Positions 1-5,772 of a stretch of 5,772 bases of DNA are shown one piece after another (the stretch's first letter is position 1; the number at the start of each line of letters is the position of its first letter). The notes beneath the pieces were generated by a model, which was not told the origin of the DNA, did no database searches, and worked only from the letters and a program-made list of their open reading frames with translations. A program made the translations under genes and the position numbers. Source of the DNA: Escherichia coli (GTDB taxonomy: Bacteria; Pseudomonadota; Gammaproteobacteria; Enterobacterales; Enterobacteriaceae); the NCBI RefSeq assembly GCF_050320075.1, contig NZ_CP190025.1; one strand, written 5' to 3'.

Positions 1-1508
1 CGGTTGATTACCTGCTGGGGAGGGAGCGTAACCGCGAAGGCGCAACGGTGCTTCAGGGTAATCCGGAAGAAGTCCGGGAACTCATCGATGCCACGCCATT
101 TGCGAAGAAATACACGTCCGGTGTTCTGTCGTTCGCGGAGAAGGAACTGCCGCCGGGAGGACGTGAAAAAGTGATGGCGAGCTTTGAGCGTGTACTGATG
201 CCCGGTCTCGAAAAAAATCAGTACAGCATCCTGTGGGTGGAGCACCAGGACAAGGGACGGCTTGAGCTGAATTTTGTCATTCCGAACATGGAGCTACAGA
301 CCGGAAAACGCCTCCAGCCGTACTACGACCGCGCAGACAGGCCGAGAATTGATGCCTGGCAGACGCTGGTGAATCACCATTACGGACTGCATGACCCCAA
401 CGCCCCGGAGAACCGCCGGACGCTGACCCTTCCTGATAACCTGCCGGAAACGAAACAGGCACTTGCTGAGAGCGTTACACGCGGTATAGACGCACTTTAC
501 CATGCCGGAGAGATAAAAGGCCGTCAGGATGTGATTCAGGCGCTCACAGAGGCGGGGCTTGAAGTGGTCAGGGTGACGCGAAGCAGTATCAGCATTGCAG
601 ACCCGAACGGCGGGAGGAATATCAGGCTGAAAGGAGCATTTTATGAGCAATCTTTTACAGACGGGCGCGGAGTTCGAGAAAAAGCTGAAAGAGAGAGCCG
701 AATCTACAGAGAAAATGCTGAACGACGAGTTCAGGAAGCTCGGCGAGTCTGTCAGCGAGGCTGTGACCTCAAACGAGACGAAAATCAGAGACGCTATAGC
801 CCTGTTCACAGCCTCGACAGAGAAATCGCTGGAAAAACACCGGGAAGGGGTGAAAGAGGCGATGATGCAGCACAGGAAGGACGTGTTAAAGCTGGCAGGG
901 AATACGGGCATGATGTTACTGGGGATAGTCTTTCTCCTGTTTACCGCGAGTGGCGGGACGCTCTGGTATCTTGGCGGACGGATACAGACGAACCTGGAAG
1001 AAATCAGGAAGCAGGAAGAGACATTGCAGAAACTGAACGCGAAGACATGGGGCGTGGAGTTTGTGCAGGACGGGAACAGGAAATTCCTTGTCCTTCCGTA
1101 CGGGAAATCAGCGGAGGTGATTCCCTTTCAGGGGAAAGAGTGGGTACATCTGAAGGAGTGACACAGAGTGACAGAGCTGGAAATTCATTTGCTGAACGCC
1201 TTAGAGCAGCTGCAACAGGACTATATGCAGCGGCTGAGCGAATGGGAGAGCGCCTTCGTGGAATTGCAGAAGATGTTTTCGCTTACACAACGGGACAACG
1301 CGATGCTGAACGAGCGGGTCATGCAGTTGAGTCAGCAGGTGCAGCACTTGAGCGAGCAGACAGAACGCTTGAGCCAGTTATACAGCGAGAACTGGAGATA
1401 AGAGAGGAACGGTTGATACAGGAGCGCGAACATGTGTTATCCCTGGAACGGGAGCGTCAGCCGGAAATACAGGAACGCACGCTGGATGGCCCTTCGCTGG
1501 GATGGTGA
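1..1508 (+). CDS. mbeA: MbeA/MobA-type mobilisation relaxase, 3' portion (5' partial in the linear window; N-terminus is at 5727..5772)
   Basis: Frame-0 ORF is open from the window start to the TGA at 1506..1508. Translation PVDYLLGRERNREGATVLQGNPEEVRELIDATPFAKKYTSGVLSFAEKEL matches the recalled ColE1 MbeA N-terminal region. Codon straddling 5772/1/2 is CCG, so the frame is continuous with the ATG at 5727. Joined length of 517 aa equals the recalled ColE1 MbeA length. Confidence 0.93.
   Translation, partial: VDYLLGRERNREGATVLQGNPEEVRELIDATPFAKKYTSGVLSFAEKELPPGGREKVMASFERVLMPGLEKNQYSILWVEHQDKGRLELNFVIPNMELQTGKRLQPYYDRADRPRIDAWQTLVNHHYGLHDPNAPENRRTLTLPDNLPETKQALAESVTRGIDALYHAGEIKGRQDVIQALTEAGLEVVRVTRSSISIADPNGGRNIRLKGAFYEQSFTDGRGVREKAERESRIYRENAERRVQEARRVCQRGCDLKRDENQRRYSPVHSLDREIAGKTPGRGERGDDAAQEGRVKAGREYGHDVTGDSLSPVYREWRDALVSWRTDTDEPGRNQEAGRDIAETEREDMGRGVCAGREQEIPCPSVREISGGDSLSGERVGTSEGVTQSDRAGNSFAERLRAAATGLYAAAERMGERLRGIAEDVFAYTTGQRDAERAGHAVESAGAALERADRTLEPVIQRELEIREERLIQEREHVLSLERERQPEIQERTLDGPSLGW
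643..1161 (+). CDS. mbeB: MbeB mobilisation protein, nested in a different frame inside mbeA; contains a hydrophobic segment (MMLLGIVFLLFTASGGTLWYL)
   Basis: 172-aa ORF, ATG at 643 preceded by AAGGAG about 8 nt upstream; arrangement and size match the recalled ColE1 mbeB gene nested in mbeA. Confidence 0.85.
   Translation: MSNLLQTGAEFEKKLKERAESTEKMLNDEFRKLGESVSEAVTSNETKIRDAIALFTASTEKSLEKHREGVKEAMMQHRKDVLKLAGNTGMMLLGIVFLLFTASGGTLWYLGGRIQTNLEEIRKQEETLQKLNAKTWGVEFVQDGNRKFLVLPYGKSAEVIPFQGKEWVHLKE
1168..1401 (+). CDS. mbeD: MbeD mobilisation / entry-exclusion-like protein, nested inside mbeA
   Basis: 77-aa ORF starting with GTG at 1168, with GGAG centred about 10 nt upstream; same frame as mbeB, separated from it by its TGA stop and 6 nt. 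Coiled-coil-like, Q/L-rich sequence, consistent with recalled ColE1 mbeD. Confidence 0.78.
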   Translation: MTELEIHLLNALEQLQQDYMQRLSEWESAFVELQKMFSLTQRDNAMLNERVMQLSQQVQHLSEQTERLSQLYSENWR

Positions 1509-1570
1509 AACCATGAAAAATGGCAGCTTCAGTGGATTAAGTGGGGGGAATGTGGCCTGTACCATCTGGT

Positions 1571-1586
1571 TGCATAGGTATTCATA
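1571..1586. promoter_or_regulatory. ARG-box-like ArgR binding site within the cer accessory region
   Basis: TGCATAGGTATTCATA resembles the ArgR box consensus TGAAT-wwww-ATTCA, at the expected distance upstream of the Xer core. Confidence 0.55.
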
Positions 1587-1603
1587 CGGTTAAAATTTAT
1601 CAG

Positions 1604-1669
1604 GCGCGATCGCGGCAGTTTTTCGGGTGGTTTGTTGCCATTTTTACCTGTCTGCTGCCGTGATCGCGC
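1604..1669. repeat. 15-bp inverted repeat (GCGCGATCGCGGCAG / CTGCCGTGATCGCGC, one mismatch) with about 36-nt spacer inside the cer accessory region
   Basis: Direct inspection: arms at 1604..1618 and 1655..1669 are reverse complements except for one position. Could be a structured part of the cer-encoded Rcd small RNA or an architectural element; not resolved. Confidence 0.6.
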
Positions 1670-1794
1670 TGAACGCGTTTTAGCGGTGCGTACAATATTG
1701 TCGTTATGTTAAATGGTTTGGATGATCCCCCCATTTTCCACATTTGGTTGTGACGATTAAGATAAACTCGTCAGAATATTTGGGTGAGGAATAA

Positions 1795-4984: not shown

Positions 4985-5060
4985 CAATCTGCTCTGATGC
5001 CGCATAGTTAAGCCAGTATACACTCCGCTATCGCTACGTGACTGGGTCAGGGCTGCGCCC
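4985..5060. other. bom / oriT region (basis of mobility; nic expected near 5010), approximate
   Basis: Sequence CCGCATAGTTAAGCCAGTATACACTCCGCTATCGCTACGTGACTGGGTCA is the reverse complement of the recalled pBR322 bom region; lies between the origin and rop, as in ColE1. Confidence 0.65.
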
Positions 5061-5158
5061 CGACACCCGCTAAAACCTGCTGACGCGCCCTGACGGGCTT
5101 GTCAGCTCCCGGCATCCGCTCACAGACAAGCTGTGACCGTCTCCGGGAGCTGCATGTG

Positions 5159-5350
5159 TCAGAGGTTTTCACCGTCATCCCCGAAGCGTGCGAGGCAGCT
5201 GCGGTAAAGCTCATCGGCGTGGTCGTGAAGCGATTCACAGATGTCTGCCTGTTCATCCGCGTCCAGTTCGTTGAGCTTCTCCAGCAGCGTTAATGTCTGG
5301 CTTCTGATAAAGCGCGCCATGTTAAGGGCTGTTTTTTCCTGTTTAGTCAC
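5159..5350 (-). CDS. rop: Rop/Rom, RNAI-RNAII interaction modulator (63 aa)
   Basis: Translation from the GTG at 5350: (M)TKQEKTALNMARFIRSQTLTLLEKLNELDADEQADICESLHDHADELYRSCLARFGDDGENL, identical to the recalled pBR322 Rop. GGAGG Shine-Dalgarno 5 nt upstream. The longer ORF 5159..5446 is an N-terminal over-extension. Confidence 0.95.
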   Translation of the reverse strand: MTKQEKTALNMARFIRSQTLTLLEKLNELDADEQADICESLHDHADELYRSCLARFGDDGENL

Positions 5351-5389
5351 TGATGCCTCCGTGTAAGGGGGATTTCTGTTCATGGGGTA

Positions 5390-5737
5390 ATGATACCGAT
5401 GAAACGCGAGAGGATGCTCACGATACGGGTTACTGATGATGAACATGCCCGGTTACTTGAACGCTGTGAGGGTAAACAACTGGCGGTATGGATGCGGCGG
5501 GTCTGCCTGGGGGAGCCGGTTGCCCGTTCCGGGAGGCTGCCGACACTGGCACCGCCGTTACTGCGTCAGCTGGCCGCCATCGGAAATAACCTGAATCAGA
5601 CAGCGAGGAAGGTGAACAGCGGGCAGTGGTCTTCCGGTGACCGGGTTCAGGTGGTGGCCGCACTGATGGCCATCGGGGATGAGCTGCGCCGGCTGCGTCT
5701 GGCCGTCAGGGAACAGGGGGCGCGGGATGATAGTTAA
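5390..5737 (+). CDS. mbeC: MbeC/MobC relaxosome accessory protein (start uncertain: in-frame ATGs at 5390, 5399, 5414)
   Basis: ORF ...MLTIRVTDDEHARLLERCEGKQLAVWMRRVCLGEPVARSG... matches recalled ColE1 MbeC; its TAA stop (5735..5737) overlaps the mbeA start (5727). Confidence 0.88.
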   Translation: MIPMKRERMLTIRVTDDEHARLLERCEGKQLAVWMRRVCLGEPVARSGRLPTLAPPLLRQLAAIGNNLNQTARKVNSGQWSSGDRVQVVAALMAIGDELRRLRLAVREQGARDDS

Positions 5738-5772
5738 ATTTCATGCCAGGGGAAAAGGTGGTGGCAGTGGTC
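5727..5772 (+). CDS. mbeA: MbeA relaxase, 5' start (continues at position 1 across the window junction)
   Basis: ATG at 5727 followed by IVKFHARGKGGGSG, the recalled MbeA N-terminus, overlapping the end of mbeC; frame continues into 1..1508. Confidence 0.9.
   Translation, partial: MIVKFHARGKGGGSG

Follow-up and report, generated by a model that had tools for sequence, protein, structure and literature searches.

A complete ColE1-family plasmid of Escherichia coli carrying a permease, a synthetase-like protein and a serine-type tRNA-like gene

We analysed a stretch of 5,772 nt from Escherichia coli (contig NZ_CP190025.1; hereafter the window) and conclude that it is almost certainly one complete, circular and mobilisable 5,772-bp plasmid of the ColE1 family of Enterobacteriaceae, which is opened at codon 16 of mbeA (Table 1). 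That this plasmid is complete was already known, and a cut inside the relaxase gene is ordinary. The sole unusual content of the plasmid is its cargo, a horizontally acquired module of three parts: a permease, an enzyme resembling class I synthetases, and a tRNA-like RNA of the serine type, which is mislabelled as tRNA-Lys in databases. This cargo lies where such plasmids usually carry theirs, between cer and the promoter of RNAII.

Table 1. Features of the window in order of position, with the evidence for each of them.
Feature	Position	Strand	Evidence and remarks
mbeA relaxase, remainder	1..1508	+	Rest of codon 16 to stop (1506-1508); includes Tyr19 and the H97/E104/N106 motif
mbeB	643..1161	+	Nested in another frame of mbeA; counterpart in an identical record is WP_001749510.1 ('MbeB family mobilization protein')
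mbeD mobilisation/entry-exclusion gene	1168..1401	+	NF033829, 119 bits (cut-off 60)
cer-type XerC/XerD core, only copy	1685..1714	+	GGTGCGTACAA-TATTGTCG-TTATGTTAAAT, pattern match
Cargo slot	1716..4143		AT-rich (about 31% GC); absent from sister plasmids with other cargo
Membrane permease, HAAAP / serine-threonine-transporter type	1795..2979	-	377-394 aa by start codon; TIGR00814, E 1.4e-23
296-aa uncharacterised protein	2940..3830	-	Class I aminoacyl-tRNA-synthetase-like catalytic core; anticodon-binding domain absent
Serine-type tRNA-like gene	4007..4095	+	ARAGORN; Rfam tRNA 46.2 bits; own covariance model 79.4 bits; comparative structure
RNAII primer region and origin of replication	4201..4750 (approximate limits)	+	Similarity to pBR322/ColE1 ori
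RNAI antisense copy-number regulator	4205..4310	-	RF00106, 66.6 bits (gathering score 47), full length
bom/oriT region	5000..5070	-	Nick-region motif TAAGCCAGTATAC at 5009-5021, pattern match
rop (rom), 63 aa	5159..5350	-	ORF; counterpart in an identical record is WP_000165985.1 ('Rop family plasmid primer RNA-binding protein')
mbeC, MobC-family relaxosome accessory protein	5414..5737	+	ORF; counterpart in an identical record is WP_001430281.1; overlaps the start of mbeA
mbeA relaxase, 5' part	5727..5772	+	Codons 1-15 and first base of codon 16; joined ORF matches NF047848

Circular closure and the ColE1 backbone

The initial annotation had proposed that the ends of the window join in frame within mbeA and that the record is a circularly permuted whole plasmid and not a chromosomal fragment. 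The first proposal is confirmed and the second is supported. Joining position 5772 to position 1 results in a single uninterrupted ORF of 517 aa. The last 46 nt, which had been read as the N-terminus of MbeA, indeed encode MIVKFHARGKGGGSG and the first base of codon 16; this codon is completed by window bases 1-2 (C plus CG, Pro16), and the frame runs on as VDY19LLGRE. The joined MbeA scores 878 bits against the profile NF047848 (relax_MbeA_E1), for which the cut-off is 500, and the match covers positions 1-496 of the 497 in the profile. We also carried out the proposed database search with the joined sequence: a junction-spanning query of 1,200 nt was contiguous in 1,008 plasmid records, where contiguous denotes a match in one piece that covers at least 80% of the query, and these include records with the same cargo and other start positions. 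The same 5,772-bp circle has already been deposited as complete circular plasmids (e.g. NZ_CP047007.1, NZ_CP130671.1), and circular records of the same length are 100% identical to the window and opened at other positions. Identical records are typed in PLSDB as mobilizable, MOBP and rep_cluster_2350. About ten variants are 98-99% identical; about seven further records of 5,759-5,793 bp (98.6-98.9% identity) come from other laboratories, hosts and countries and have different start positions. At the level of assembled sequences, circular closure is supported by the independent assemblies and the continuity of the ORF, and the in-frame junction together with independently assembled circular records fits the closed, unit-length circle of a ColE1-family plasmid.

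The in-frame junction might only reflect a unit-length excerpt if the window were a piece of a larger replicon, such as a cointegrate, an IS-bearing derivative or a multimer, or if it were an integrated chromosomal copy. Larger derivatives do exist: a version of 8,055 bp from K. pneumoniae carries an ISKpn21 insertion, other versions have 8,776 bp and 7,528 bp, and one record of 17,315 bp contains three copies. However, at least four independent circular records have exact or near unit length (5,759-5,793 bp), a chromosomal copy was found in 0/5,426 genomes, and in the window every function is single and foreign ends are absent. We thus consider an origin from a larger replicon or the chromosome very unlikely. 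Even less credible is that the junction is an assembly artefact, caused by wrong trimming of an overlap or by the loss or duplication of a base where the circle was opened. Points in favour of an artefact are some sister records that are 1 nt longer (5,773) and a record labelled as linear, in which mbeA is annotated as incomplete; yet the junction is contiguous in both NZ_CP138690.1 (100% identity) and NZ_CP047007.1 (99.9%), the frame is intact, MbeA is matched over its full length and a terminal repeat is absent. A duplication at the junction, which had been raised as a possible objection, was looked for and neither terminal overlap nor internal duplication was found: the longest prefix of the window that equals its suffix has 1 nt, and the window contains no repeats of more than 25 nt and no foreign ends.

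Each function of the ColE1 backbone had been described as present once, and we likewise found RNAI/RNAII-ori, rop, bom, mbeC, mbeA, mbeB, mbeD and one cer core in single copy. The order of RNAI/RNAII-Rop, mbeC-mbeA(mbeB)-mbeD, bom and cer in the window is that of ColE1 itself and of related mobilisable plasmids (Col(RNAI)-type, MOBP5/HEN). As in the ColE1 family, the antisense RNAI lies over the 5' end of RNAII, upstream of the origin; we assigned RNAII and the origin by similarity to the pBR322/ColE1 origin. No Rep-sized ORF was found in the ORF list of the window, and Rop is present. The 52-aa 'replication initiation protein' that RefSeq places inside the origin is a short reading frame overlying the primer sequence and not a Rep. 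The pattern GGTGCGTACAA-N8-TTATGNTAAAT, which we assume to be the consensus of ColE1 cer, has one match in the window (1685-1714), so that the single cer refers to the core site. The mobilisation region comprises a MOBP5/HEN relaxase, MbeA, with MbeB, MbeC, MbeD and bom/oriT, in agreement with the annotations of the identical records; its nick motif follows what we take to be the pattern of ColE1/pBR322 bom. Tyr19 and H97/E104/N106 were located by reading the translation of MbeA, and their role is presumably catalytic.

From this set of elements and the established biology of ColE1, we infer how the backbone would work. Replication would be primed by RNAII and throttled by the antisense RNAI with Rop, and a plasmid Rep protein would not be required. 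The XerCD recombinases of the host would resolve multimers, with the single cer site as their target. A helper conjugative plasmid would be needed for transfer, with nicking at bom by MbeA together with MbeB and MbeC. The replicon claim itself is a matter of bookkeeping only: the record belongs with the circular plasmids, and the cut point is no reason to label mbeA a pseudogene or 'incomplete', as was done in one sister record.

The cargo slot and its proteins

The limits of the cargo become apparent when the window is compared to pS1905_2 (NZ_CP103773.1), a plasmid whose backbone is 97-99% identical. Homology between the backbones ends at 1715 and restarts at 4144, which places the cargo limits at 1715/1716 and 4143/4144. 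The cargo thus spans 2.4 kb directly after the cer core and makes up 42% of the replicon. In pS1905_2 the slot contains the Eco29kI restriction-modification system, whereas in the window it contains the module of permease, synthetase-like protein and tRNA-like RNA; compared to ColE1, the window is without colicin, immunity or lysis genes. The plasmid p0 of E. coli J-8 (NZ_CP047007.1) is 100% identical to the window over the whole length. Of the 5,426 complete E. coli genomes searched, 21 contain the cargo, always on a plasmid and never on the chromosome. We searched the literature for the cargo module or for tRNA genes on ColE1 plasmids and found no description. The counts of AAG versus AAA codons in the cargo genes (3/29 and 2/14) were considered as a signal of recoding, which was dropped as the counts merely track the AT-richness.

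The match of the permease to TIGR00814 is far below the family cut-off, and RefSeq labels the protein 'amino acid permease' or hypothetical. Searches of Pfam, NCBIfam, PADLOC, PHROGs and PDB sequences gave only a sub-threshold match to Ser/Thr transporters. A transporter always adjoins the gene of the synthetase-like enzyme, and it comes from one of four different families. Almost all other loci also contain a partner with a metallo-beta-lactamase fold, a hydrolase resembling COG1237-type enzymes, which is absent from this plasmid.

The fold of the 296-aa protein matches class I aminoacyl-tRNA synthetase cores, with a Rossmann-fold core. This core and a small N-terminal part use up all 296 aa and leave no anticodon-binding domain. 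At the sequence level, homology to any synthetase was not detectable: searches against Pfam, NCBIfam, PADLOC, PHROGs and PDB sequences returned nothing useful, and hhalign gave a probability of 0.3% (no signal) when the family profile was compared to E. coli CysRS. At the level of whole core strands, an invariant SGGH84T follows the first core strand at the place where HIGH is expected, and a KMSKS-like loop was not recognised, with the protein ending just past the last core strand. The family is tiny (57 representatives among 1.84 billion), and its conserved motifs are CxC, SGGHT, NDFYMEK, SEKNMADRFKRH, KPxCxAGNAAT and FPLCS; five cysteines are conserved. Stand-alone paralogues of class I synthetases, i.e. 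GluQRS (YadB), MshC, BshC and the cyclodipeptide synthases, have no detectable sequence similarity to the protein and differ in their conserved motifs; none of them is known to come with its own tRNA-like gene. A reading of the SGGH motif as PP-loop thiolase or TilS-like was set aside because PP-loop enzymes are missing from the top structural matches. A weak Pfam match to MptE-like proteins (E 0.2) drew attention, given the COG1237-type resemblance of the partner hydrolase; it was dropped because it recurred in only 1/33 family members at E <= 0.1.

The tRNA-like RNA and its relatives

The tRNA-like gene is divergent from the gene of the 296-aa protein at a distance of 176 nt. It has a long variable arm, G73 and an encoded CCA, and is labelled tRNA-Lys(CUU) by RefSeq and ARAGORN. 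The tRNA-Lys of E. coli has a class 1 body with a short variable loop, the discriminator A73 and A37 after U36, whereas the window RNA has a variable arm of 17 nt, G73 and a G at position 37. Its body is that of a tRNA-Ser, with the long variable arm, G73, the pairs G1-C72/G2-C71/A3-U70 and a Ser-type D loop. A genuine tRNA-Ser(UGA) of Edwardsiella (locus L020, 8705-8792), to which the tRNA-like model gives 58 bits, has exactly the same D loop (GAGUGGUUUAAG). No 7-nt loop with a serine anticodon on a stem of 5 bp was found: in the window the loop would read CUU, and its relatives have helices of 8-13 bp with loops of 4-12 nt.

These relatives retain the acceptor, D, T and variable arms, with covarying hairpins of 8-13 bp in place of the anticodon arm. 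In alignment A5, this hairpin is a helix of 12-13 bp closed by a loop of 4-6 nt in six of the nine distinct RNAs (L012, L026, L013, L017, L020, L027), whereas that of L019 has 8 bp and a loop of 12 nt. The arm of the window RNA folds at least as well into a 6-bp hairpin with a UCUU tetraloop as into the form with the 7-nt loop. Covariation supports the structure, with compensatory changes at nine pairs. Protein identity between Enterobacterales and a Lentisphaerae MAG is only 47%, yet their RNAs have near-invariant acceptor, D and T arms.

The tRNA-like genes adjoin the enzyme gene in the window and in L012, L013, L017, L019, L020, L026-L028 and L031, and in gammaproteobacterial loci their position and orientation relative to it are fixed. 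All metagenome loci that were found by the RNA pattern alone have the enzyme gene alongside (5/5), and the pattern had no match in viral contigs. When the 5-6 kb around the enzyme gene were searched with the covariance model and all filters off, nine relatives (L003, L004, L007, L011, L016, L018, L022, L023, L032) showed no tRNA-like gene; the enzyme may therefore not need the RNA.

We take tRNA-Sec, the metagenomic 'allo-tRNAs' and the staphylococcal non-proteinogenic tRNA-Gly to be like the window RNA: presumably, a serine-like body (long variable arm, G73) is diverted from ordinary decoding and the gene adjoins a presumed user enzyme. Compared to these special-purpose serine-type tRNAs, the window RNA has the standard 7/5 acceptor/T geometry instead of 8/5 or 9/3, RNAs of its type have a hairpin of variable length (6-13 bp) instead of a fixed anticodon loop, and the module is without a SelA, SelB, PSTK or Fem-type partner.

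Possible functions of the module

What the module does can be proposed with restraint. It is plausible, at somewhat less than even confidence, that the module is an undescribed natural pairing of a minimal class-I-synthetase-like enzyme with a dedicated serine-type tRNA-like RNA that does not decode. A small-molecule transporter would be coupled to this pair, joined outside E. coli by the metallo-beta-lactamase-fold hydrolase, and the 3' end of the RNA would be where the enzyme loads or transforms a compound resembling an amino acid. More tentatively, the putative enzyme may use ATP on a transported amino-acid-like small molecule, with the tRNA-like (or seryl-tRNA-like) RNA as its dedicated partner. 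In this best guess, the RNA at 4007-4095 would not be a decoding tRNA-Lys.

The RNA could instead be a working decoding tRNA with the anticodon CUU, which is charged with serine by the host SerRS or the plasmid enzyme, so that AAG would be recoded or mistranslated. ARAGORN, Infernal and RefSeq agree on a 7-nt loop CUCUUGA with U33 and a 5-bp stem, and the distant relative L031 has a textbook loop CUUCAAC with the anticodon UCA on an 8-bp stem. Furthermore, the acceptor pairs G1-C72, G2-C71 and A3-U70, G73 and the long variable arm of the window RNA fit the identity rules of SerRS. However, the long-helix arms of the six RNAs in A5 and of L019 could not reach the decoding centre, and the hairpin with the UCUU tetraloop is an at least equally stable fold of the window arm. 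G37 after U36 and a G-A mismatch as the first stem pair also argue against decoding, and if a multicopy plasmid caused Lys-to-Ser mistranslation on a wide scale, this should carry a high cost. We thus regard a decoding tRNA as improbable. Somewhat less doubtful, but still unlikely, is that the tRNA-like gene is a mere relic of a tRNA-targeted integration site and that the enzyme is an MshC/BshC-like ATP-dependent small-molecule ligase without an RNA partner. The RNA is full length up to the CCA, its place beside the enzyme gene is fixed in gammaproteobacterial loci, and its acceptor, D and T arms hardly vary among loci with strongly diverged proteins. Its helices are kept by covariation, which would not be expected of a decaying att relic.

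If enzyme and RNA are indeed paired in this way, the multicopy mobilisable plasmid would carry a tRNA-dependent small-molecule pathway of a new kind or, at the extreme, an orthogonal synthetase/tRNA pair of natural origin. As the cargo resides on the backbone that is the workhorse of cloning, this is trivially testable in E. coli. Should the enzyme and the RNA really interact, the module would be a new member on the short list of tRNA-dependent non-ribosomal chemistries.

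The window as a complete plasmid

The initial annotation described the window as a circularly permuted whole plasmid and not a chromosomal fragment, and proposed a search against plasmid databases. Its results include complete circular plasmids that have the window's exact length of 5,772 bp and match it with 100% identity throughout, among them NZ_CP047007.1 (E. coli J-8 p0; chicken, China) and NZ_CP130671.1 (human urine); plasmids of 5,759–5,793 bp in further isolates of E. coli and K. pneumoniae are 98.6–98.9% identical. The matching records start at other points than the window. 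Furthermore, a 1,200-nt query spanning the junction of positions 5772 and 1 is a single piece at 1579–2778 of NZ_CP047007.1 and at 1086–2285 of NZ_CP138690.1, and a total of 1,008 plasmid records contain it contiguously. The observation is thus confirmed and its interpretation supported. In PLSDB, the identical records are typed as mobilizable, MOBP and rep_cluster_2350. NZ_CP138690.1 (8,055 bp, K. pneumoniae) is a derivative with an ISKpn21 insertion, and NZ_JBQJRQ010000006.1 (17,315 bp) contains three copies of the plasmid, probably as a multimer or an assembly concatemer.

The 3' end of the window (5727–5772, ATGATAGTTAAATTTCATGCCAGGGGAAAAGGTGGTGGCAGTGGTC) and its 5' start (CGGTTGATTACCTG) meet within mbeA: the 46 terminal nucleotides make up 15 codons and the first base of codon 16 (Pro), which is completed by bases 1–2. 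As had been predicted, joining end to start yields a single uninterrupted ORF of 517 aa, with its stop at 1506–1508. The joined protein scores 878 bits (cut-off 500 bits) over profile positions 1–496 of 497 of NF047848 (relax_MbeA_E1, the NCBI ColE1 relaxase model). It contains Tyr19, which we take to be the catalytic tyrosine of MbeA, and an H97/E104/N106 triad, presumably the 'HEN' motif. The beginning and the end of the window match for at most 1 nt and the longest internal repeats are 24–25 nt with 75–76% identity; thus, no overlap or tandem-duplication artefact is present at the junction. In NZ_JCAPTL010000003.1, a record marked as linear, mbeA is called 'incomplete' solely from the cut point, the same artefact that the first reading had recognized here.

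The backbone functions are each present once, as also claimed before. The cer core and the bom nick region are presumed from matches to ColE1 consensus patterns. The whole-replicon finding is already known, and it is ordinary because the sequence has been deposited as a complete circular plasmid.

Features of the window and tRNA-like genes of related loci
Feature	Record	Position	Strand	Remark
RNAI	window	4205–4310	-	Rfam 66.6 bits, full length; antisense to start of RNAII/ori
RNAII/ori region	window	about 4201–4750		read from sequence
rop	window	5159–5350	-	
mbeC	window	5414–5737		
mbeA	window	5727–5772 + 1–1508		
mbeB	window	643–1161		
mbeD	window	1168–1401		
cer-type XerCD core, one copy	window	1685–1714		pattern match
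bom nick-region motif	window	5009–5021		pattern match
Permease ORF	window	1795–2979	-	multi-pass membrane protein; sub-threshold match to TIGR00814 serine/threonine transporter, E 1.4e-23
296-aa protein ORF	window	2940–3830	-	
tRNA-like gene	L012	5706–5807	-	
tRNA-like gene	L013	1814–1916	-	
tRNA-like gene	L017 and L020	4707–4809	-	
tRNA-like gene	L019	8939–9039	+	
tRNA-like gene	L031	1392–1483		continues over the overlapping contig end into the contig start

The cargo slot and its proteins

The sister plasmid pS1905_2, whose backbone is 97–99% identical, aligns only to 1–1715 and 4144–5772 of the window, and the gap in this alignment defines the cargo as 1716–4143. The cargo starts one base past the cer core and runs to just short of the RNAII promoter hairpin; its GC content is 31%, compared to 54–55% in the backbone. 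In pS1905_2, exactly the same slot contains the Eco29kI restriction-modification system. The slot position and this sister plasmid suggest that cargo may be exchanged at or beside cer. Recombination of ColE1 plasmids at cer and oriT has been suggested (PMC8683028), and the coincidence of one cargo boundary with the XerD-side end of cer fits this idea. Among 5,426 complete E. coli genomes, 21 contain the cargo, always on a plasmid and never on the chromosome.

In its longest form, which starts at 2979, the permease ORF shares 40 nt (2940–2979) with the end of the 296-aa ORF; RefSeq places the permease start later (377 or 385 aa). The 296-aa protein, here called the enzyme, has no match in Pfam, NCBIfam, PADLOC or PDB sequences. 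Its family is very small (56 clusters in a set of 5.8 billion proteins; 57 representatives among 1.84 billion, 42 with E ≤ 1e-10; just 8 loci across 100,044 species genomes) and strongly conserved, with 30 invariant positions that include C28xC30, SGGH84T, NDFYMEK, SEKNMADRFKRH, KPxC228xAGNAAT, FPLC262S and C294. The AlphaFold2 model (33 homologues) is confident (pLDDT 91, pTM 0.90). Past its first core strand, the invariant SGGH would occupy the HIGH/TxGH position of the superfamily. The protein stops directly past the last core strand and is thus without an anticodon-binding domain.

Outside the E. coli plasmid clade, a metallo-beta-lactamase-fold hydrolase of 236–297 aa (closest solved relatives 2p4z and 3h3e) almost always adjoins the enzyme gene. 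A transporter always adjoins it and belongs to one of four families: HAAAP-like in Gammaproteobacteria, EamA on a Cetobacterium plasmid, MFS in a Lentisphaerae MAG and SSF beside a remote homologue. At locus L032 (3466–11002), a remote homologue of 333 aa lies between a sodium/solute symporter and unknown proteins of 1,192 and 211 aa, with a seryl-tRNA synthetase gene about 4 kb downstream on the same strand; this neighbour is a possible second link of the family to serine/tRNA-Ser, albeit a single and anecdotal one. On the Edwardsiella anguillarum chromosome (L020, 5001–7061), the enzyme gene is broken into two ORFs, as is the permease gene, and both are apparent pseudogenes; the tRNA-like and hydrolase genes are still intact, and a genuine tRNA-Ser(UGA) is located at a distance of about 4 kb.

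A serine-type tRNA-like RNA

ARAGORN, Infernal and RefSeq label 4007–4095(+) as tRNA-Lys with anticodon CUU. Its body is serine-type, with a 17-nt variable arm, G73 and the acceptor stem G1-C72/G2-C71/A3-U70. Compared with the D loop of a genuine Edwardsiella tRNA-Ser, only one base of its D loop is different (C instead of U), and in relatives such as L012 the D loop is the same as in this tRNA-Ser. A comparison of nine distinct sequences shows almost no variation in the acceptor stem, D arm, T arm, G73 or CCA, and covariation at 2 pairs of the variable arm. The place of the 'anticodon arm' is taken by helices that differ widely in sequence and length, with compensatory changes at 7 pairs; paired cells amount to 94.8% overall compared to 38–50% in slid controls. 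These arms have 12 perfect pairs and a 5–6-nt loop (L012, L013), 13 pairs including two mismatches and a tetraloop (L017, L020, L027), or 8 pairs and a 12-nt loop (L019, the Lentisphaerae MAG). Arms of this kind could not offer an anticodon to the ribosome. In L031, a small metagenomic contig, the arm has 8 bp and the textbook loop CUUCAAC with anticodon UCA. The tRNA-Lys label is not supported and looks wrong, and the gene is best described as encoding a putative serine-type tRNA-like RNA whose anticodon arm would be free of decoding constraint.

In seven loci (L012, L013, L017, L020 and L026–L028), where the enzyme is only 63–67% identical, a similar gene lies divergently about 180–190 nt upstream of the enzyme gene; in L019 (47% identical) and L031, it lies elsewhere in the cluster. 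From one phylum to another, the acceptor, D, T and variable arms are kept, and covarying hairpins of 6–13 bp stand in for the anticodon arm. In the closest non-ColE1 relative (L011, 84% protein identity), homology breaks off precisely where the RNA gene has its 5' end. The tRNA-like gene of the window is directed towards the RNAII promoter, which lies about 100 nt downstream, and between the two there is only the promoter-region hairpin (4154–4176); read-through into the replication primer, possibly altering copy number, is conceivable.

What the module may do

A constant enzyme with a changing transporter would suggest that the substrate or product is small and probably amino-acid-like, and the fold and SGGH motif would suggest ATP-dependent adenylate chemistry. 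The serine-type RNA is co-inherited and structurally constrained and has an intact CCA end, which may indicate a step directed at the tRNA end: the enzyme might charge the RNA itself, or the RNA might be used once serylated by the host SerRS. We tentatively propose, as a possible if doubtful reading, that enzyme and RNA jointly act on the transported small molecule. Rather unlikely is an MshC-like small-molecule ligase with the RNA as a passenger. A metagenome scan with the RNA pattern only, which detects close relatives only, found five loci (two from the window's own plasmid family), all five with the enzyme gene adjacent; an unfiltered covariance-model search found no tRNA-like gene within 5–6 kb of the enzyme gene in nine loci.

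That the E. coli version is a decoding or mistranslating tRNA seems very improbable. Its arm is short. One possible drawing has a stem of 5 bp, with G-A as the first pair, and the loop CUCUUGA; the minimum-free-energy form is a 6-bp hairpin with a UCUU tetraloop. A variant from mouse E. coli (94% identical) differs only by a C-to-U change facing a G, which preserves the pairing, and by two bases in the variable-arm loop. The remaining probability falls to none of joint action, ligase and decoding. A literature search for a synthetase-like/tRNA-like module found no description, and the cargo of this replicon is an unstudied and easily tested module of this kind.
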